Source: Mytilus edulis
Lineage: Eukaryota
Length of the DNA: 64,000 nt
Reading direction: 5' to 3'
Assembly (NCBI RefSeq): GCF_963676685.1
Contig: NC_092351.1
Coordinates: forward strand, 29,326,001-29,390,000
The notes under the pieces were generated by a model. That model was not told where the DNA came from, ran no database searches, and saw only the letters and a list, made by a program, of their open reading frames with translations. Shown piece after piece: positions 5,400 to 21,330 of this stretch. Positions within the stretch are counted from its first letter, which is position 1, and every line of letters begins with the position of its first letter. The translations under genes and the position numbers were made by a program.

Positions 5400-8300
5400 G
5401 TGCTGGTGGTTGTACCCCAGGATTGTACATGCGTCTAGTGTGGTAGGAAATCATATGCCTTTTATCACCGCTGGCTAGCCTGCTTGCAGGTGAAAAAAAA
5501 AGCCGAGCGAGGAAGTCTTTCTGCCAGTACATAGCCTCTGCACTATTCAAGGTTTCTGCAATGCCTCCCTACGACAGCACATGGTAACTAGGGGGATTAA
5601 CGTCAAGCTATTCACCTTGCCCAGTAAAACAAAGCTGATTACAGAAACTAATACAGTCGTTTAACATGCTTGCCCTTCCAGGGTTGGAGCAGAAGTTGTT
5701 TTTAATGCAACTGACGCCATGCGATGCAGAGAATGACGTCTAATAAACCGATACCACTGTTTTCCCCCAAAAAAGTCACTTAAGTTGCGCAATGGAATGT
5801 ACGCACAATGTATGAATGCGGAAAATGTGCTCAGCTAGCAAAGGAAAAACTATGATATAAACGTACTTGGCATAAGAGAAGCAAGATGGAACCAAAGTGG
5901 AGTTTTGACACTGGCAACAGTTGAGGAGATTCTATTCTCGGGAAACCCAAAGGAAAATGATTGCCACACCAAAGGAGTAGCAATAATGCTTTCAAACACA
6001 CCAAAGAACTACAACATGTTTGGGACAACATCCCCAAGAGAGACATCAAAATAGTCATGGGTGATATGAATGCTAAGATTGGAAAAGAGTACAAGGAGCC
6101 TGTAATTCAGTGGTTGTCGTTTGTTTATGTGTTACATATTTGTTTTTCGTTCATTTTTATATGAATAAGGCCGTTTGTTTTCTCGTTTCAATTGTTTTAC
6201 ATTGTCATATCGGGGCGTTTTATAGCTGACTATGCGATGTGGGCTTATTTCATTGTTGAAGGCTGTACGTTGACCTATTGTTTTTCATGTCTGTGTCATT
6301 TTGGTCTCTTGTGGACAGTTTTCTCATTGGCAATTATACCAGATCTTCTTTTTTATAAGGACAGGGAGAAAACATAAGGAAAACATGGTCTAGGAGAAAT
6401 AAATGAGAATGAAGTAAAGCTAGTTGAATTCTGTGAGATGAATGAGCTTGTGATAGGAGGCAGTTTATTTCCACATAAGAATATACACAAGGAAACATGG
6501 GAATCATCTGATGGAAAAACAAAAAAAATTCAGATTGACCACATCATGATAAGTCAGAGATGGAGAAGCTCACTACAAGACGTGAGAGTTATGAGATGAG
6601 CAGATATCAGCTCAGACCACCATCTTATCATAGCCAAAATAAAAACAAAACTTGCAAAAGGGACCAAAATTAAACAGAAAGGTATAAAGTATAATGTGGA
6701 GAAGCTCAAAAACTTACATCTTTAAAGATCAATTCCAAATCGAGCTCGGAAACAGATTTGAAGTACTTAAAGATGGGCCAGACCTGGACAAAAATGTCGA
6801 ATGGGAAGTTGGAAGAGATATCATCAAGGAATTGTGTGAAGATGTACTTGGAAGAAAAACTTACAAAAAGAAAGATTTCATGTCACATAGAACATGGGAT
6901 AAAGTAGAAAGAGAAGGAAAATGAAGAAAAAGGTAAACAATGCAAGAACAAGGCTCAGAAATAAGAAGCACAAAACAAACACCAGTTGCTCAACAAAGAA
7001 GTGAAAAAAATACTGTAGAAAAGACAAGACAGAATATGTAAATGACCTTGCAACTGAAGCAGAATTTGCTGCATCTAAGGGCGATATCAAAACCTTGAAC
7101 AATATCACCAAAACCCTTAGTAAACGTAAAACAGCCAAGTCTAAACCAGTAAAGGATAAAGATTGAAAATCCCAACCAATCGTAATGAACAGATGGAAAG
7201 ATTGAATGAATACTTCGTCAATGTCCTAAATAGACAAGAACCAGACCAACCAGAAAGAGTAGAGCCAGCTGAGGTAGATTTGAACATAAAAATAGATAAC
7301 ATTACGAAATATGAAGTGAAAAAGGTCTTCAAATCACTAAAGAATGGAAAATCTGCAGGCATAGATGAAAAACCACTTGAAGTTTTCAAATTTGGAGACA
7401 ATGACATAATAGAATACAAACTCCTGAATAAGATCTGGCAGGAAGAAAAGATACCAACAGAATGGTTAAAGGGTTTGTTAGTGAAGCTGCCAAAGAAAGG
7501 AGATTTAGGGCTATGTGAGATTGGAGAAGCACAACACTTCTATCAGTAGCTAGTAAAATACTGTGCAAAATTATACTCAGCCGAATTAAAGATGCAAATG
7601 ATTAGGTACTTAGAGACATACAAGCAGGTTTCAGATCAAACTGAAGCTGCAATGACCAAACAGCAACACTGCGTACCATCATTGAACCACAATCAGTGGA
7701 ATGGCAATCATCTCTCTACATCAACTTTGTCGATTTTGAAAGAGCATTCGATAGTGTAAACAGTGGCAACTGCTAAGTCATTATGGTATACCAACAAAAA
7801 TTGTGAATATGATAAAGGCGTTTACGTGGATTTCACAGTACAGGTGGTACAGGAATCATCATTCACTAATCCTTTCCATGTAAATACTGGTGTGAAACAA
7901 GGCTGAATACTCTCCCCTAGACTATTCTTGAAATCCATAGACTCGGTGACTAAGCAAGCACTAGACACTACACCAAGAGGTATACAGTGGAACTTCGCAC
8001 AAAGGATAGAAGACCTAGATTTTGCAGATGATCTGGCTCTGTTATCTCACGGTTTGAAAGACATGAGAGACAAAACCACCGAACTCCATGAAATAGGAAA
8101 TAAAATAAGGCTAAAAATCAACATCAAGAAGACAAAATTTATGAACGTGAAGACCAGAAAAGGTGGACCAGTGTCAATTGAAGGAAAAGATATTGAAGAA
8201 GTCGATCAGTTTACTTATTTAGGAAACATCATGGATAGAACTGGTGGGACTGATGCAGACATCAAGACAAGAATAAGTAAAGTTCGACAAGTTTTGCTAT

Positions 8301-10289: not shown

Positions 10290-12029
10290 TATTGTGCTCT
10301 TTCCATTTCATCCAATACAGATAAACTGCCAAGATGTGTAGTTTCCAGAAGACTAAGAGTTCACGCGTCGAACATTGAAGAGTTGGTGAAACGTAAATAA
10401 CAGATGCTATAGAAATGATCGAATGTTTCTTATTCAATAGTTTATACGACAACATTTTTTTGTTTGGTCTAAGTATAAACCACGAACGAACCTTTTAGGT
10501 AAGTTACGCCCCAATCATCGGTGGTGTCCTTTTTTAGGGTTTCGGGATAAACACCTGCTTTAAAAAGGTAATAATTTGAAACTGCTTCATCAGTGTATAC
10601 AGCAAGTACTGTGCCAAGCGCAATCAGGTCTTTCATTCGGTAATTTTCCGTGGTTTCTGCGGGACCCGAATGGCGGGTTCGGTTGTTCTCGACAACTATC
10701 GGTATGGTCACCTTGCTTCCAATGGAATTATTTATGCAGTCTTTGTAAGTACCAACCAAACAGTTTTTACAAGAATAACATGACAGGTTAATAACTGTCA
10801 AATTAGCATCGTCCAAAGAAGAAGAAAACCTGATGCAGACTTCTAATACCGGAACGGGTTTAACAGATATTGTGTTACGATCTATACGCTCGACATATCT
10901 AAATATTCAGCGCTTACAATACAGTGCTTTAGTGCCCTTTAAATGTTTCCCGCTGTATTTAAAATAATCTGCCGCAGATTGTATTACTTCGTTCTCAAGA
11001 AAAATTAACAGCCATGTCTACTTGATTCTTTAAAAAGCCCCCGGCTGCGTCATAATGTCCCTTTGCGTTCGAAGTTTCGAAATAATTTCGAATGAAAAAT
11101 TCATATCCGTGTTTGGAACAAATGTCGATTAACATTCCAAAACAATTTCGTGACTTATATTGAACCATAACTTTTACATCATATCGAATCGAATCTAAAT
11201 ACTCCTTGACAAGGGTTTGAATATTTTGGGTAAAAAAACTTATCATGTCTCTCATCCGGGCTTATTACAAAGAAATGCTCTGTGATAATACATGGAATAT
11301 CCGGCAAACTTTCTACTCCGTCTACCTCCAGAATTGCATGACGATTAATTACGGACACATGCATCTATACTTCGTGCGCTGAAAACTTTCTTTGCAACAG
11401 TAGTTTTCGGAATAGTAATGAATTAAGTGCATTTTCTGACAACAGTAAGTTTTGTATTCGAATTTACAGTGATGTATTTGTACCGTTCCCAAGATACATT
11501 GGGAGAATCATCCGAAACATTTAACTCTTCGTCTGTAAATTTTAAGAACGAAGTCCACATTTACTACATTCACGATGAAACACGCCTTCGAGTAAGAACT
11601 ATTTACTTGATCCTTATCACATAAAGTAGCAACGGCGATATCAGTCAGATGTTCATAAATAGGGTACACGTTTTGCTCGAAATCTAAACTGTTCGGAATC
11701 ATGTATTTTTTCTAAACTCAATTGTTTTTGAAAACTAACATCTGACTTCTATGAGGTAGCGACAATAGCAGGTAATACAATCCTTTGGTCTTGCTGACCG
11801 GACAAAATACGGCTTTAATCTCTCAAATGGTCTTTGGTTCATTTTTATGTTTGGAATATTTATACACAAGTCATTAAACTCTTCAGTTTGAGATTTATCA
11901 AGTATATATATAGAATTTTTTAAGAATTGTTTTGGGGCCAATACGAATACGCTTCGTGTAATTTTTGTTTCCAGACGACCGGAATGTATTAGGATCTGTC
12001 CAAAAATTGTACGCGATTTTCTTTACTAA
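10290..12029 (-). pseudogene. Decayed DDD-type transposase (Sola2-like by motif), C-terminal part; interrupted by the YR element
   Basis: Frameshifted fragments LKPYFVRSARPKDCITCYCRY, YSENY, EHFFVISPDERHD, QYKS, RNYFETSNAKGHYDAAGGFLK and a C-terminal CYSCKNC...C. The superfamily call is from recalled motif patterns. Confidence 0.7.
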
Positions 12030-12129
12030 GGTTTATCACTTATAAGATAAACCAATTTAATGAAAGAGATTTGATTAATGTATTTATTTTCCTTAAATGA
12101 CATATTTTATCATTCGGATCCGCATCTCG

Positions 12130-12170
12130 CTTCCGGCTTATAAACATCACGTGACTTCAGCCTCACAGTT
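12130..12170 (+). promoter_or_regulatory. Internal Pol II core promoter of the YR element
   Basis: CTTCCGG, TATAAA (12139-12144), CACGTG (12148-12153) and an Inr-like CAGTT whose A (12167) is 28 nt after the TATA start. Confidence 0.55.
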
Positions 12171-12267
12171 GAACTAGCCGCTCTGGATAAGTGAAAGTTA
12201 CAAAAGTTTCAAAAGACAATCGTCAAAAAATCTTCGACATCCGCAACTTATAGATTTCTAATCAGAT

Positions 12268-13404
12268 ATGAAACCACCGAAAAGGCCTCGTAATGTTCCC
12301 AAAAAGGTTTCACAGCAGCCTACAGGTCCAGCAAAGAAATTTGGAAAAGGCAAAGTGCCGTCAACACGAGGAGCACTTTCAAAATCACAGAACACGACAA
12401 GAACCGTTCAAGTGTCTAGAGCAGCGACAGATTCTAATTTGGCAATTGCTAGGTGTGCAGCTATTAACATTGTATCAGACGCACATCAGGAACCCCCATT
12501 CGTGCCTTTCAGGATTCAAGATGAGATGGATACAGAAAGTCCAAATAGCAACGAGGGAGACGCACTGGACAGACCAAGGGAAGATTTGTTACCACAGACT
12601 CCACAACCTGGCCCCAGCGGGGTGATGAGTCCAGCAAACAACAACCTTGGTATGTTAACTGTCTCAAATGTTTCTCACGGGTCGGCTGCTGGGTCTTTAG
12701 ATACTCGTTTACAAGTGGACCAATCCCCTTCATACATTTCAAGTGTTTTCGATCCCATTTCATCCCATATTCCGGTCAAAATTAAAGAAAAAATATGGAA
12801 CGGTGAATTTATTGACCTGAACGTTCTTCTAAAATCCACCCGGGACCTTTTAAACGAGCAAAATTTAGAGGGTGAACTGGTAGTTAAAGGGGGTGTTTTA
12901 TCCCTAGTTAACCAAAAGAAAAGTCCCATAAAAAGTATTTATATCTGGACTTCCGCATTCATGATTTATGGAAGTGTCATGCTTGAAAAATAGCCCAACA
13001 AAGGTCTGGAGTTTTTCAAATACATGCAAACAGTCAGAATGGCAGCCTCAAGGGGTTACTCTGGAGGCTGGGTTCATTATGATGAGCAATTTAGGTTACG
13101 TAAAGTTTTTTCCCCCTTTTCTTCATGGGGAGTTGTCGATATGGAGCTGTGGTTACTATGTGTATCTACTCCGAACGTTAGTCCTTTTTTTAACACAGGA
13201 ATTTCAAATATCAATAACCATCAATCGCATAGTGGGAATTCATCGACAAGTGGGGCGTCGAGTCAAAATGTAGGACAACGACGCGTGTTTACATGCAGAT
13301 TATTCAATAACAAGGGTACTTGTACATTTGGCAAGAATTGCAAATTTGCTCACAAATGCTCGAAATGTAATGGTAGTCATCCCTATTTAGAATGCAGAAA
13401 TTAA
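12268..13404 (+). pseudogene. gag: Gag-like ORF1 with one premature stop (TAG 12991-12993, probably TGG)
   Basis: ORFs 12268-12993 and 13024-13404 are in one frame. IKEKIWNGEFIDL and WVHYDEQFR motifs; C-terminal CCCH (CRLFNNKGTCTFGKNCKFAH) and CCHC (CSKCNGSHPYLEC) fingers. Confidence 0.88.
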
Positions 13405-13492
13405 TTCCGCTTTGTTTTTGTTTACCTTGTTTTTGTAAACATCTTTTTTCCTAGAAATTATATTTAGATATTGTTATGTGTGGCTTATTGAA

Positions 13493-15595
13493 GGGAAAAC
13501 GGTAGTATTTAATTTTCCCAGCATTAGGTTGGCCTTTTGTGTACCCAAGGCAGGTGAAGGAAGTCAAATTAGGAGCGCTGTGATTGGATGTAAGGGTACA
13601 ATATATTTTTTTATTTATCTATGAATAACTGCAGTGTGTATATTTACAATATAAATTTTAAAACCTATTGAAATATTTTCTAGAGAATTATTCGAAAAGA
13701 CTTGCAAAATTTCATAAATTTGGTGCAAAATGACGGTGGGCATGGATAACATAAACAAGCTCCGTTGGAAGTTGGTCATGATACTATTTGGCTTTAATTT
13801 TTAAAACAGAGTAATAAAGTACTAACACAACATATAACTGTTTTATCCAGGTTTTTATCTTAAAAAGTGGTAAATTTAGAAAATGTTAGCATTGTCGCCA
13901 ATGGCAGAATAAATAGTACCGTTTTCCCTATACTGAAGATAGCAAGGGAAATCAAGGCACTCAGACTTCAATTCTTTTATACTATTTTGAAGCTTTTGAT
14001 TAGTACATTTGATTTTTATCACAAAGAATAGAAATTTTTCACTGAGAACAATACTGTGTTGAGAAAAGTGCTGAGTCATCATGATAGGTCAAATTGATTG
14101 GTAATGATATAAAACTTTATTCTAGGATGTCAATATTAACTATATTGTGTAAAATGCACCATATTATAGTTCTTTTGTATTTGATTTCACCTTTCGCAAT
14201 GATTTTTTCAATTGGAAACACCAGAATTCAAGTCGCGACAAATATTTTTTACTGAAATGTTTGCCTTTTTTGCTGCGTAATTCCCTAAATGTATAACTTG
14301 GGTATTTCTGTAAACATAATCTATTAAAATGGGAAATAGTCTGGTTTAGTTTGTACTGTTTATGGAATTAGGCAATATTTGGTCACATTGAAAGCATTTT
14401 CAGTGTTAGAATTGTTCATCTAAGAAAAAAAGAGGCCCACTTGAGGCTAAATTTACATAGAATTTATACTCTCCTGTGTAAAGAATTGTTCACATTCTTG
14501 ATAATGCATGCAGCAAATATTTCAAAAGTGCTTCATTTTGTAGTTTCTTTCTTTTATTATATCAGACATAACTAATTTTTCATTTCCTACTGTTTGAAAG
14601 GACTTTTGTTGGAAATTAATACTCCCAAGGGACATAATTCAGCTTTTTCATTGATTAATACAGGCAACAAAGGCAACTTTACAGCTGAGTAGTTTGCATA
14701 TTTAATGTTTAAAGTGTCTAATATCTTTGTTTTCATCATCTCAAGACAGAATAATAGATTTTATAACAAGCTCTAAAAATTTTAACCACAATATGGCATA
14801 TACTAAAGCATGGAATGGAGATTAGTATGAAAAATCTTGAATTTGTGCATTTCTTGTAAATTTTTGATAAAATGAATACAAATTGAATGGAACTGTCCAT
14901 TTTATCTGTTTAAACGGAACTATTTATCATTCTTTTTAAATAAGATAAGATATGATTGGATACAGGTTGTTTATTAAGGCTTTTCTGAAAGAAGTAGAGA
15001 ATGAGGTAAACCAGCATGTAGGGGTGGGGACATAAAATGATCTATGTTTCTTCAAGTACTGGGGACATACAAGTATTTATTATAGCCAAGGTTTTCACAA
15101 TAGCCTAGTATTGCATTAATACTGTCATAAGAATTCTTTATATCTTTATGTCACAGTATAGGGAAAACGGTAGTATTTAATTTTCCCAGCATTAGGTTGG
15201 CCTTTTGTGTACCCAAGGCAGGTGAAGGAAGTCAAATTAGGAGCGCTGTGATTGGATGTAAGGGTACAATATATTTTTTATTTATCTATGAATAACTGCA
15301 GTGTGTATATTTACAATATAAATTTTAAAACCTATTGAAATATTTTCTAGAGAATTATTCGAAAAGACTTGCAAAATTTCATAAATTTGGTGCAAAATGA
15401 CGGTGGGCATGGATAACATAAACAAGCTCCGTTGGAAGTTGGTCATGATACTATTTGGCTTTAATTTTTAAAACAGAGTAATAAAGTACTAACACAACAT
15501 ATAACTGTTTTATCCAGGTTTTTATCTTAAAAAGTGGTAAATTTAGAAAATGTTAGCATTGTCGCCAATGGCAGAATAAATAGTACCGTTTTCCC
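13493..15595. mobile_element. Non-autonomous composite DNA transposon with long terminal direct repeats (KolobokP-like)
   Basis: Near-identical repeats 13493-13928 and 15161-15595, each with its own TIRs gggaaaacggtagtattt / aaatagtaccgttttccc. Outer 4-bp TSD TGAA; TATA at both inner junctions. Confidence 0.85.
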
Positions 15596-15844
15596 TGAAC
15601 AGACATGTTCAGTTCCCGATCCAGTTTAATTATAACTACTTAATGACGTATACATATATGAAACAGAGGCTGTAACCGAGTATAAATAGAATACAGATTT
15701 AGCACACGTGAGAGATATCTTTCAGTACATTTGAACTTGTTTGCTAGAAATGGTCGAGTTATCTCTCCTTGTACTAGAAAAAATGTATTTACTATATTTT
15801 ATCATGTTAATTAATTTGTGTTTGTTTTTGTTTTTAATTTGCAG

Positions 15845-17463
15845 GTTACAAGCATTTGTATTCTCTGGGTAATTCGCCAATAAACGTCGATGAAGTAAAG
15901 AAAGCTCTCAAAAATTACCCACATCAAGAGGTTGCGCGAGACCTGATACAAGGTCTCGAAGCTGGGTTTAAACTAAAATACTCCGGTCCGAGACTTCCTA
16001 TGGATATAGATTCTAAAGAAATGAATGGGGAGAAAGCCACCATAGCCAGGGACAAAATCCTTAAAGAAATGAACCTGGGTAGGGTAGCTGGTCCTTTTTC
16101 AGAACCTCCGTTCCCCACCTTTCGTGTTTCTCCGATCTCGGTTATCCCTAAAAAATCTAGTTCAGAATTCAGGTTAATTCATAATTTGTCCTTTCCTATA
16201 AATCACTCCGTTAATGACTTTATTGACAAGCAGTACTGTTCTGTAAAATACTCAAGTATAGCTATAGACGACGCTGTCAATATGATTCACAGATTGAAAA
16301 AGAACACGCTCTTGGCCAAGTGCGACGTAAAATCGGCTTTTCGTTTGCTAAGACTCTCTCCGGGTGATTTTGATCTGATGGGGTTCAAATTTGAGAATCA
16401 ATATTTCTTTGATAAATGCCTCCCAATGGGGGCCAGTATTAGCTCGGCGCTATTTGAATCCTTTTCCACCGCCTTGCATTGGGTTGTACAGCAACAGTCA
16501 AAAAACGACAATATTTTACATTATTTGGACGATTTTCTGTTTGGAGGCGAGGCACGAACTTCTCAATGCCACGACACTCTAAAGTGTTGCCAGGATTCTT
16601 GTAAACTTTGAGGGGTTCCGTTAGCAGAGAAAAAAACCGTCGAGCCAACGGAAGTGTTGATATTCCTTGCTATTGAATTTGACACAATCAACATGATAAT
16701 GCGTCTCCCCGAAGACAAACTTATTGAGTTAAAAGCCAGAATTTCTTATTGTTTAGGTAGATCCAAAATCACCCTTCGGGATTTACAATCTTTGATTGGT
16801 ATACTAAATTTTGCATGTCAAGTAATTGTCCCGGGTCGAGCCTTTTGTCGTCGTTTGATTGACGCCACTTGCAATTTGCGTAGGCCCCATCACAGAACCA
16901 GAATAACTAAGGCTATGAAAGAAGACCTTAATATTTGGTTACTATTTCTATCAAACTACAACGGTACTACCGTAATTCTGGATAAATTCTGGTCATCAAA
17001 CTCAGATCTCGAATTGTTCACTGACAGTGCAGGTGGGGTCGGAAAAGGCTTTGGTATTTATTTTGAAGGGAAATGGGCCCAGGCGAGTTGGCCCCACAAT
17101 TGGATAAATTCTGGAATTTTAACCGATATTACCTTTCTAGAACTGTTCCCTGTAATCGTTGCTTTGGACATTTGGGGAGGCATGTTAAAAAACAAGAAAA
17201 TTTTATTTCACATAGATAACCAGAGCGTAGTTTCTATAATCAATAAAAAGTCTTCAAAGTCGACAAGTGTTATGTCCCTAATCAGAAAACTTGTATTGGC
17301 CTGCTTGGAATGCAACATATTGATTAAAGCCGAACATATCCCAGGTCATTTGAATTCTCTTGCTGACTCCCTCTCTCGTTGTGATTTTCAGAAGTTCCGG
17401 AAACTATGCCCCACAGCAGATGCAAACCCATACTCGATTCCGGCCCATCTCTGGAATGTTTAA
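15845..17463 (+). pseudogene. pol: Reverse transcriptase-RNase H (DIRS/Ngaro type) with one premature stop (TGA 16609-16611, probably TGG)
   Basis: FRLIHNLS, KCDVKSAFR, LPMG and HYLDDF motifs; RNase H LFTDSA, ITFLELFP, IDNQSVV and NSLADSLSR. The two listed ORFs share one frame. No ATG at the start of the frame; acceptor tttgcag ends at 15844. Confidence 0.92.
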
Positions 17464-18374
17464 AAGACGAGGCAGACCTATTACTTAAATGTTCAATGGC
17501 TCCGAACTCCTGGAAAACTTATAAAACAGCAGTAGAATGTTTAAAAAAGTTTCGCATTATTTATAACAATCGCGATATTTGGCCGGTACCTATCGTCGAA
17601 ATAGCTCAATTCATAGCATACCTGTCGTACAAAGGTTTCTCTGCGTCTACTGTTTCTACCTACATCTCTGGATTGGCCCACACACACAAGATTAACAATG
17701 TAACAGATAACACGAAATCATTCATCATCTGCAAAATGATTGAAGGATTGCGTAGAAAAAATCCGCAAAAACCAGATGTTCGAACGCCGATATCGTTGGA
17801 CTTGTTAAAACGTTTAATTCACAGTCTACGGAACGTCTGCAATTCTCAATATGAAACTATATTGTTTTCTTCGGCTTTTTCTCTTGCGTATTTCGCCATG
17901 CTACGGGTAAGTGAGTTGGCTATAAACAGTCGTACTGACGAAAGCGGACATGCATTGAAATGTGAAGATATCACTTTTGATAAGAGTAAGGGTCAAACCG
18001 AATTACATGTAAAAATATGCAGCTCAAAAACCGATCAAAAGCATACTTCCATAACCCTGATCATTCAAAGCCATGCAGATTCGAATATCTGTCCAATCAC
18101 GCTATTACAATCTTACTTGCAGGTTCGCTACTCCGGCGTAAATGGATCAAATAAATTATATACACATTTTAATGGTTTGGCCTTAACAAAATATCAATTT
18201 TGTTCCCTGCTTCAAAAATGTTTGGGTTTCTGTGAACTACCGTTCCACATTCGTTCTCATTCTTTTCGGATAGGACGAGCTACTGATATGGCAAAAAATG
18301 GTGTTAAAGACGATATTATCAAGCAGTGCGGCCGATGGTCTTCCGTTGCATATTTACGCTATATTCGTATCTGA
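17392..18374 (+). CDS. Tyrosine recombinase, overlapping the RNase H C-terminus
   Basis: Open frame with catalytic R (MLRVSE), K (SKTDQ), HxxR (SHSFRIG), GRW and Y (AYLRYIR). Confidence 0.93.
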
Positions 18375-18447
18375 GTCTTAAATTTAACTTTCATTACAGC
18401 TCAAACGAAGTGTTTTTAATATTATAATACATATTACCTCCTTTTAG

Positions 18448-19046
18448 GTTCAAAAGCTATTTGGTTCGTCGGATCTTCAATTGTATATTGGGCACAGACA
18501 AATGCAAAAACGAGATACGGGGGCCCAAACATTGGTCTTCAAAGCAGAGGGGTGTACATACGCTGGTTTGGAAAAAGGGGTATGTTGTGGAATGATTTTA
18601 ATGCCAAGGTATCCCATGCAGTTGACAAATTTTCTCCTCCCGCCATGATAATCATTCAGCTTGGTTCCAATGATCCGGTCAAAGTTAAATCTTTGGAACT
18701 CATCCAAAATATTGAAAGGGATATTCTGCGTCTGCATTTACTTCTACCTAACACTCGCATCGTATGGAGTGAAATGTTAATGCGAAGGTATTGGCACGGT
18801 GCTACAGATGGAAAAGCTATCGAAAGATCTCGAAAACGAGTAAACTCGGCTATTAACAATTATGCCTTGAATGATGGGCACTGTGTTATTCAGCATCCTA
18901 ATATCCGAGCTCGAGAGATGAACTTGTATAGATATGACGGAACTCACTTATCCGATATTGGTTATGATATATACTTGAATAACATACAAGGGGGTATTGA
19001 AACTTTCCTATCATCTCAAAAAATTCGGCGTTTCCCGGAAGTATAA
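18448..19046 (+). CDS. SGNH/GDSL hydrolase
   Basis: The frame opens upstream of the listed ORF to include WFVGSS (block I), then GKRG, QLGSND and DGTH. It starts at acceptor ccttttag (18447). Confidence 0.88.
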
Positions 19047-19099
19047 TTTAAAATAGAATTTCTTATGGTTTTCAAGGGGTTAAAAAAAAGGGGGGGTAT

Positions 19100-21100
19100 T
19101 TAATGAGTGTGTATAGACTCACTCACGTGGCAAGATTAAGGGGTCATGATCCGTTCCTGTATTGTACGTCGGATCATATTAGTTTTTTACTTTCCTGCGT
19201 TACCGCAGGAAGTTCTGTTGAGACCATCTCATGTCTACCCTGAGTGGACCAGACACAAGTTGTTTCCTTTTTCCTTTTTCCTTTTTCGATATTCAAATTT
19301 TGAAAAATATTTGAAGTCCAAACTGAAACACAAAATTTTTTTTTTCTCCCAAAATTTTTTTTCTTCAAATTTTTTTTTCTTCAAAAAATTTTTTTTCTCA
19401 AAATCTTTTTTCCTCAAAATATTTTTTGCTCAAAATTTTTTTTGCTCAAAATTTTTTTTTCTCAAAAAATTTTTTTCTCCCAAAATTTGTTTTCCTCAAA
19501 AAATTTTTTCACCTCAATTTTTTTCCCCTCATTTATTTGGTTTCTGTTTCCTAATTCGATTTTCATTTCCTTATTCGAATTCTATTTCCTTATTCGATTT
19601 TCATTTCCTTATTCGCTTTCTATTTCCTTATTGGGTTCCCCTATTTTCTTATTCGGTTTCTATTTCCTTATTCGATTTTCATTTCCTTATTCAGTTTCTA
19701 TTTCCTTATTCGATTTTTATTTCCTTATTCGATTTTTATTTCCTTATTCGCTTTCTATTTCCTTATTCGATTTTCATTTCCTTATTCTGTTTCTATTTCC
19801 TTATTCGGTTTCTATTTCCTTATTGGTTTCTATTTTATTCGGTTTCTATTTCCTTATTCGGTTTCTATTTCCTTATTCGATTTTCATTTCCTTATTGGGT
19901 TTTTAATTCCTGATTGGGTTTCTATTTCCTTATTCGATTTTCATTTCCTTATTTGGTTTCTATTTCCTTATTTGATTTTCATTTTCTTATTCGGTTTCTA
20001 TTTCCTTATAAATAGCAAATAAGCAAATACAAACTGAATAAGGAAATAGAAACCGAATTAGGAAATGAAAATAGAATAAGGAAATAGAAACCCAATAAGA
20101 AAATGAAAATCGAATAAGGAATTAGAAACCGAATAAGGAAATAGAAACAGAATAAGGAAATGAAAATCGAATAAGGAAATAGAAACCAAATAAGGAAATA
20201 AAAATCGAATAAGGAAATAGAAACCGGATAAGGAAATGAAAATTTAATAAGGAAATAGAAACCGAATAAGAAAATAGGGGAACCCATTAAGGAAATAGAA
20301 AGCCAATAAGGAAATGAAAATCGAATAAGGAAATAGAAAGCGAATAAGTTAATGAAAATCGAATAAGGAAAAAGAAACTGAATAAGGAAATAGAAACCCA
20401 ATAAGGAAATAGAAACCAAATAAGAAAATGAAAATCGAATAAGGAAATGGAAACCAAATAAGGAAATAGAAACCCAATAAGAAAATAGAAAACAAATAAG
20501 GAAATGAAAATCGAATAAGGAAAAAGAAACCGAATAAGGAAATGAAAATCGAATTAGGAAACAGAAACCAAATAAGAAATGAGGGGACAAAAATTGAGGT
20601 GAAAAAAAATTTGGACAAAAACAAATTTTGGTGGAAAAAAAAATTTTGAGGAAAAAAAATTTGGGGAGAAAAAAATTTTTTGAGAAAAAAAAAATTTTCA
20701 GGAAAAAAAATTTGAGGAAAAAAAATTTTGTGTTTCAGTTTGGACTTCAAATGTTTTTCAAAATTTGAATATCGAAAAAGGAAAAAGGAAAAAGGAAACA
20801 ACTTGTGTCTGGTCCTGAGTGGCCGGTTCTGAATTGGTACCAGTTCGAGCTTAACTGTTTGTTTAATCTAGAAATTGTTAAATTGTTAATCTTTACTCCC
20901 CTGAAACCAGGGGGTGATGCGAATAAGACCCGACGTATTTGGGGATCATGGCCCTCGTTCTCTTTAGGATTTAACCTGGAGGAACTTGAGCATCCATTGC
21001 TACCAATGGTGCACAGATTTGTCAGTTAAATCAATCATGTCGGCATTCTGTTATCATGTCAGACCTCGTCATTCAAAGTGAACTGTGGCCGTTAATTCCA
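19100..21100 (+). other. Structured 3' non-coding region of the YR element (split by the foldback insertion)
   Basis: Nested long-range stems 19141-19152/20943-20954 and 19165-19180/20922-20937, plus several local hairpins. Confidence 0.6.
19248..20813. mobile_element. Foldback-type non-autonomous DNA transposon (MuDR/FB-like)
   Basis: About 760-bp inverted arms starting accagacacaagttg, built of T-tracts and ~20-bp ttccttattcgattttcatt-type subrepeats. 9-bp TSD CCTGAGTGG (19239-19247, 20814-20822). Confidence 0.9.
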
Positions 21101-21151
21101 CATAAATTGCTTGTTTGTTATGCTTTGCCTTAAACTTGATTCTTTAATTAA

Positions 21152-21330
21152 ATCTTCAGTTAAAGCATCTTTCTTCGTTTTTCTCTCAATAAATGTCCAA
21201 CATGACTTTCAGAAGTTAATATTTGGATACATACTCTTTTCGATAGCTGTTTAAGGGGAAGTCCCAAAATTCTTGAAAGCAAAGTTTTCTTTCGATCTTT
21301 TTTTTTTGGTTAACCAGTGCCCTCTGTGAA
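21152..21330 (-). pseudogene. N-terminal continuation of the interrupted transposase gene
   Basis: IERKTKKDALTED reads in frame into LVKKIAYNFW across the empty site. Confidence 0.75.

Follow-up and report, generated by a model that had tools for sequence, protein, structure and literature searches.

The element of interest lies in a 64,000-nucleotide (nt) stretch of the Mytilus edulis genome (NCBI RefSeq assembly GCF_963676685.1, contig NC_092351.1, positions 29,326,001–29,390,000 of the forward strand; hereafter the window, from whose first letter all coordinates are counted). Judged by its sequence, it is a Ngaro-type tyrosine recombinase (YR) retrotransposon, with split direct repeats and the open reading frame (ORF) order gag, reverse transcriptase-RNase H (RT-RH), YR and SGNH hydrolase. 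Comparison with related copies (L numbers denote loci) makes it very probable that RNA of the element is alternatively spliced, such that one gag-encoded leader is placed onto RT-RH, YR or SGNH, likely yielding three fusion proteins. The features concerned are listed below; splice sites and exons are predictions.

12024–12205, + strand: A1 repeat at the 5' end; L001, L002 and L005 carry a matching internal A2
12268–13404, + strand: gag-like ORF; conserved core, CCCH zinc finger at the C-terminus; TAG at 12991–12993 breaks the frame
12268–12649, + strand: coding part of the shared leader exon, 127 codons plus 1 nt; N-terminus basic, followed by low-complexity sequence
12650–12655, + strand: phase-1 splice donor GTATGT; the exact site joined in processed copy L008
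15805–15844, + strand: RT acceptor, pyrimidine tract and TGCAG; used exactly in L008
15845–17463, + strand: RT-RNase H exon, without an ATG of its own; TGA at 16609–16611 breaks the frame
17352–17391, + strand: YR acceptor within RNase H codons A-D-S-L-S-R-C-D-F-Q, CTGAC at -29; homologous site used in five copies
17392–18374, + strand: tyrosine recombinase exon, read in the -1 frame with respect to RT-RH; Pfam matches
18375–18399, + strand: competing acceptor whose exon would open at 18400 and meet a stop 5 codons on; phase differs in L005–L007
18408–18447, + strand: SGNH acceptor; homologous site used in L111
18448–19046, + strand: SGNH hydrolase exon, without an ATG ahead of the GSS block; Lipase_GDSL_2
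19128–21152, + strand: B repeat, 3' end, split by a foldback/tandem-repeat insertion; A2 and second B missing

The element and its candidate splice sites

Pfam matches over the ORF pieces comprise a CCCH finger, RT, RNase H-like, phage integrase and GDSL/SGNH domains. RT is matched by RVT_1 (8.8e-13, over the Pfam cut-off) and the RNase H-like part by RVT_3 (8e-4, under it); YR is matched by Phage_integrase (7.2e-6; at 26.3 bits slightly under the cut-off of 27.1) and Phage_int_SAM_1 (8e-4), and the SGNH ORF by Lipase_GDSL_2 (1.3e-7). None of the six ORF pieces matched a methyltransferase domain, a DIRS-like and PAT-like trait, at E ≤ 0.1, and a search of viral contigs gave no relative. YR lies on the same strand as RT-RH and downstream of it, with a short -1 overlap (RT-RH ends 79 nt into YR). 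The gag ORF is open in L001 and L002 (380 codons, stop to stop); a fold search with its core gave no PDB match at E ≤ 0.001, and the label "gag" therefore rests on position. Sister copies L001, L002 and L005 are complete, carrying A1, the ORFs, B1, A2, a spacer of ~400 nt and B2. The window copy retains A1 and a single B only and is dead, with stops in gag and RT, nested insertions and neither A2 nor a second B.

A first-pass annotation of the window had proposed that a donor CTTG|GTATGT after 12649 is phase 1 in gag, and that the acceptors before 15845, 17392 and 18448 are likewise phase 1 in their own frames. Both statements hold: the donor lies 127 codons plus 1 nt from the ATG at 12268, and each acceptor leaves its first exon base at codon offset 1 in its own frame (RT, YR or SGNH), with G (RT), E (YR) and G (SGNH) as the junction residues of the predicted joins. 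As also proposed, the YR acceptor is embedded in RNase H coding sequence, and neither the RT start nor the SGNH GSS block has a Met ahead of it; in the window copy, two Met follow the acceptor in the YR frame. An additional acceptor was said to run into a stop, which it does; its first exon base is 18400 rather than the 18399 given, and, with its phase unconserved, it is probably incidental. By pyrimidine content, the RT and YR acceptors are among the five highest of the 173 YAG sites within 12300–19100, with the SGNH acceptor about 9th. The donor is weak (2.2 bits), and gag contains a better GT, a phase-2 site upstream that reaches 2.7. Taken from this single window sequence alone, the four-site pattern is suggestive and weak.

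Spliced copies in the mussel genome

The comparison with family references covered 140 loci. Eight genomic copies, spread over three of the eight families searched, are missing precisely one GT-AG intron whose 5' end is the gag donor: two have a leader-RT join, five a leader-YR join and one a leader-SGNH join. One donor is hence seen with several acceptors, in three kinds of retrovirus-like GT-AG join. In L008, which belongs to the family of the window copy (95%), 12649 is joined directly to 15845, and in L108 (L038 family) the donor is joined to the RT acceptor. The remaining six copies belong to the L031 family, which has ~45% amino-acid identity to the window family. Here, the donor CTG|GTGAGT is joined to the RNase H-embedded acceptor in L029 and L132 (1 nt ambiguity) and to the SGNH acceptor in L111; the L031 leader, used as a query, had 31 matches, six of which end at the donor, and all six are spliced, adding three further leader-YR copies (L141, L142 and L143). 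The L108 donor and the L111 acceptor had been scored before those loci were retrieved. These copies, one of them at the exact coordinates, support the alternative splicing to a shared leader that the first-pass annotation had inferred.

Three properties of the processed copies are of interest. Firstly, frames are continuous across joins: L029 holds a natural leader-YR ORF of 369 amino acids (aa), and in L111 the leader reads in frame into the SGNH GSS block. Secondly, all five copies checked begin with A1, and L029 also carries B1, A2 and B2; retention of A1 and the repeats fits copying in trans by the element's own machinery. Thirdly, in a tree of the SGNH region, L029, L132, L142 and L143 are scattered among unspliced copies (L141 lacks the region), and these separate positions point to repeated origin.

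The shortened copies could, alternatively, be DNA-level or template-switch deletions at microhomologies, with the splice sites falling there by chance. Microhomology is indeed common in deletions (median 3 nt among non-splice deletions), and L008, L111 and L108 have 3–4 nt at their joins. Set against this, the leader-YR join, with its 1 nt ambiguity, recurs in five copies on separate branches; in the L031 family one donor meets two different acceptors; 4/48 distinct deletions start at the family donor, where 0.035 are expected; and GT-AG ends occur in 8/53 distinct deletions (one poorly aligned, three in non-coding ends) versus 0.63 expected. We regard chance deletion as scarcely credible.

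Other candidates were set aside. Six short copies (L144, L145, L149, L004, L007 and L036) have breakpoints that are not GT-AG and are ordinary deletions; two of them, L144 and L145 (L038 family), are non-autonomous, retaining the leader and repeats, with all enzymes gone and a common breakpoint. For L146–L148 and L150, no joined partner was found. At L053, similarity begins exactly at the SGNH acceptor (L053:5462), after unrelated sequence ending in CAG; with no leader within ~15 kb upstream it was not counted as a spliced copy, and either a host exon splice or a microhomology deletion may account for it. A GT-AG deletion in L094 was rejected for poor alignment. A strong-looking G|GTGART site in the gag core (Gly-Glu codons) is used in none of the processed copies.

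Conservation of phase and codons, and the rival readings

Across 16–17 diverged families of the mussel genome, the sites and their phase are conserved. For each family the best-scoring site was taken, for the donor within 150 nt ahead of the gag core; rows removed before counting were L100 (donor test), L082 (RT and YR) and L028, L010 and L025 (codon test). In 16/16 families the top-scoring donor falls in phase 1; among control coding windows this holds for 118/253 (p 5e-6). Phase 1 is likewise found for the top-scoring acceptor of RT in 14/16 families, of YR in 14/16 and of SGNH in 13/17, and an open frame without Met precedes the core in 6/16, 10/16 and 15/17 families, respectively.

The acceptors also leave a mark on the codons that contain them. 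Where the YR acceptor overlies RNase H, the codons read TCY in 15/16, CGN in 16/16 and CAG in 16/16 families, against backgrounds of 0.33, 0.43 and 0.42. Across 142 conserved degenerate columns the median top-codon share is 0.57, with 16 columns (mostly A/T-ending) reaching 0.85; the acceptor codons run against this background, and so shared ancestry alone is an unlikely explanation. In nine families with overlapping gag and RT, the best RT acceptor falls within a gag AGR codon (in 3/9 inside the zinc-finger motif), which explains the fixed +1 frame. A metagenome set of 80 loci in 65 clusters (some loci from the same or very near species) extends this: the motif was found in 33 clusters, and, where found, CAG occupies the YR site in 24/25 clusters at ≥40% identity and in 8/8 at <40%. 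Motif-less by the search pattern are 9 close and 14 far clusters, the other clusters ending before the RNase H end; 4/9 of the close motif-less clusters carry S-R-x-Q missed by the pattern. In the close group, the acceptor is phase 1 in 15/18 (SGNH) and 21/28 (RT).

These data bear on a reading in which splicing is real and cryptic: a by-product or host attenuation producing dead-end RNAs, with the enzymes starting at internal or non-AUG codons. The modest strength of the donors is in its favor, as are Met codons ahead of the core in some families (RT 10/16, YR 6/16) and further GT-AG deletions in the non-coding 5' and 3' parts of L091, L048 and L057. Cryptic sites, however, would not hold one phase at four positions over 16–17 families, nor would they fix synonymous codons inside RNase H, and we consider this reading highly improbable. 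As observations in their own right, the L091 deletion (419 nt relative to L080, reference 1336–1756) has no microhomology and ends 6 nt before the gag ATG, making it likely a 5' untranslated region intron of its family, and L143 has a similar, inexact deletion. The L048 and L057 deletions (relative to L038, reference 6295 and 6401 to 6500) lie in the B repeat and have a common acceptor; in L048 the shortening affects the second B copy alone, a possible clue to the copying of the repeats.

A further reading has the downstream ORFs expressed from unspliced RNA by programmed frameshifting (or read-through or reinitiation), with splicing secondary or absent. RT to YR is a -1 step in 16/16 families (overlapping in 14), gag to RT an overlap in the +1 frame in 10/16, gag is open into RT in L050 and L077, the RNA contigs described below are unspliced, and Poulter and Butler 2015, as quoted in PMC13003380, regard programmed frameshifting as the probable source of Ngaro YR. 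A canonical -1 slippery heptamer (the one type searched), however, occurs in 0/14 RT/YR overlaps; the window family has gaps with stops between gag and RT (326 nt) and between YR and SGNH (45 nt); YR-SGNH is a gap in 13/17 families and its frame relation varies (stops peculiar to single copies widen some of these gaps); acceptors lying inside Gln and Arg codons account for the frames that are fixed; and frameshifting leaves the processed copies unexplained. Frameshifting as the principal route is therefore very unlikely, a minor frameshift product alongside splicing being possible. Fused frames (gag into RT; YR into SGNH) are seen in L050, L077 and L079 as single copies, unlike their sister copies, and the simple reading of the gag-RT fusions in L050 and L077 is single-copy indels.

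The DNA between gag and RT in the window copy is also relevant here:

13466–15718, no strand assigned: insertion inside the predicted RT intron, a 140-nt outer unit carrying a nested 2.1-kb unit; AGATAT at both ends

The nested insertions total 2.25 kb. The outer 140-nt insertion is common to the window copy, L001 and L002; the element thus stayed mobile while carrying additional sequence between these two ORFs, and such tolerance fits an intron or spacer, not a frameshift site. Within the insertion, near-identical elements of ~435 nt with terminal inverted repeats (13493–13928 and 15161–15595) bracket 1.2 kb of other sequence; the whole appears to have gone in as one composite unit, with TGAA on either side, into the older 140-nt insertion. 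Elsewhere, a foldback element at 19247–20814 interrupts the B repeat; it has terminal inverted repeats together with arrays, also inverted, of 16–17 and 19-nt units. In L112, most of an element is tandemly duplicated with a 3.6-kb period. The ~400 nt that separate A2 from B2 in L001, L002 and L005 are unique sequence, and spacers are seen in other families too; in the textbook YR scheme, by contrast, B1, A2 and B2 are adjacent.

The proposed expression scheme and its meaning

In the splicing scheme that we favor, unspliced RNA would serve as both genome and Gag message, while a single phase-1 gag donor would be spliced to in-frame acceptors before RT-RH, YR and SGNH. The three spliced RNAs would be working mRNAs, translated into leader-RT-RH, leader-YR and leader-SGNH fusions. 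The joins would be made by the spliceosome, and the resulting RNAs, which would retain A1 and B1-A2-B2, then reverse-transcribed and integrated in trans; weak sites likely hold most RNA unspliced.

The leader's likeliest role is to provide a start codon together with a nuclear-import or RNA-binding tag. Leaders are 41–140 aa long, and in 15/16 families have 7–14 Lys/Arg in the first 35 residues (12 in L001; the leader of the 16th family was measured from an upstream Met). They are unalignable past the basic N-terminus, and the donor is always ahead of the gag core. A low-confidence structure model of L002 (mean predicted local distance difference test score, pLDDT, 59) has pLDDT <50 over most of residues 28–161 and a folded core from ~162. 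A basic, predicted-disordered leader of this kind would bring enzymes without the Gag core to the replication complex.

RNA was sought in 8/24 listed sequencing runs, none registered as RNA and four judged probable RNA. One probable-RNA contig of 4903 nt spans all four sites unspliced, and the data suggest that unspliced RNA dominates in the samples examined. Several observations weigh against the scheme. Among 342 raw reads placed from four of the runs none falls in the donor bin, so that depth there is nil, and contigs of the four probable RNA runs, which drop rare forms, contain no splice joint; as a result, the RNA neither shows nor excludes the joins. The fusion proteins, like the leader's role, are predicted. 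In the window family the RT join is the one seen (1/12 leader matches), its YR (17392) and SGNH (18448) joins being drawn from homology; the SGNH join comes from a single old copy, L111. The L008 join has 3 nt of microhomology, equal to the non-splice median, and L008 alone is hence no proof. Leader searches in 5/8 families gave no processed copy ending at the donor; in another leader search 40/91 candidates were scored, and the known L108 was missed. The scoring matrices are rough, the windows were set after a first look at the sites, and the 16–17 families share ancestry. Finally, a metagenome group at ~30% identity lacks the Gln/CAG site, so the scheme may not be universal.

Parallels exist in several systems. 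In avian sarcoma-leukosis virus env, and in complex retroviruses, one upstream donor is used and the gag exon gives the start codon; that leader is only a few residues long and serves env or accessory genes, whereas in the mussel element it would serve RT and the integrating enzyme. Foamy viruses translate Pol from a spliced subgenomic RNA instead of as a Gag-Pol fusion (PMC7828637), giving one enzyme polyprotein separate from Gag; in the mussel element, a Gag leader of 40–140 aa would be attached to each of three ORFs. In the plant Ty1/Copia element EVD, conserved alternative splicing balances Gag and enzymes (PMC5580714), with spliced RNA giving Gag and unspliced RNA the enzymes, the reverse of the arrangement proposed for the mussel element with its three acceptors. 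Xenopus DIRS-53_XT and DIRS-54_XT are Ngaro-like YR retrotransposons with an SGNH hydrolase (PMC9210276), which share the gag, RT/RH, YR, SGNH order and the A1..B1 A2 B2 split direct repeats and differ in lacking the ~400-nt A2-B2 spacer; the available text of that paper has no match to "splic" or "intron", while the mussel ORFs are linked by conserved splice sites. The Ngaro model of Poulter and Butler 2015 (via PMC13003380) likewise has YR overlapping the RT/RH end in the -1 frame and proposes frameshifting, whereas the mussel overlap holds the acceptor used in five processed copies. In Cafeteria Ngaro type 2b, recurrent copies missing ~2 kb of ORF1 are described as deletions (PMC8547959); the likeness lies in the recurrent ORF1-less copies, and the available text has no match to "splic".

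A one-donor, three-acceptor scheme for YR elements was not found in the literature searched, which did not cover two main reviews; term searches of the available text of PMC7192593, PMC4157794, PMC9341512, PMC9210276, PMC3783388, PMC12477816, PMC8226300, PMC8547959 and PMC6681497 gave none. The element type is already known, and the leader-splicing scheme with three acceptors is new relative to that literature.

For the translation of start-less, overlapping YR-element ORFs, the published view, in the part of the literature available to us, is frameshifting, graded "probable". Splicing is a different answer, one that brings exact junctions and genomic fossils of each splice. We lean towards a broader reading, held less firmly than the splicing itself: leader splicing onto RT-RH, YR and SGNH may be an ancestral, clade-wide expression code of animal (perhaps protist) Ngaro elements, in which the "overlapping ORFs" taken for frameshift sites are acceptors in RNase H and zinc-finger codons and the leader replaces a Gag-Pol fusion as the route by which the enzymes get to the genome RNA. 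If splicing is the answer, Ngaro protein annotation would change, true N-termini carrying a basic leader of 40–140 aa; ORF1-less copies would be reinterpreted as possible spliced products; and it would be explained why these elements need the host spliceosome and yet keep their introns through an RNA stage.

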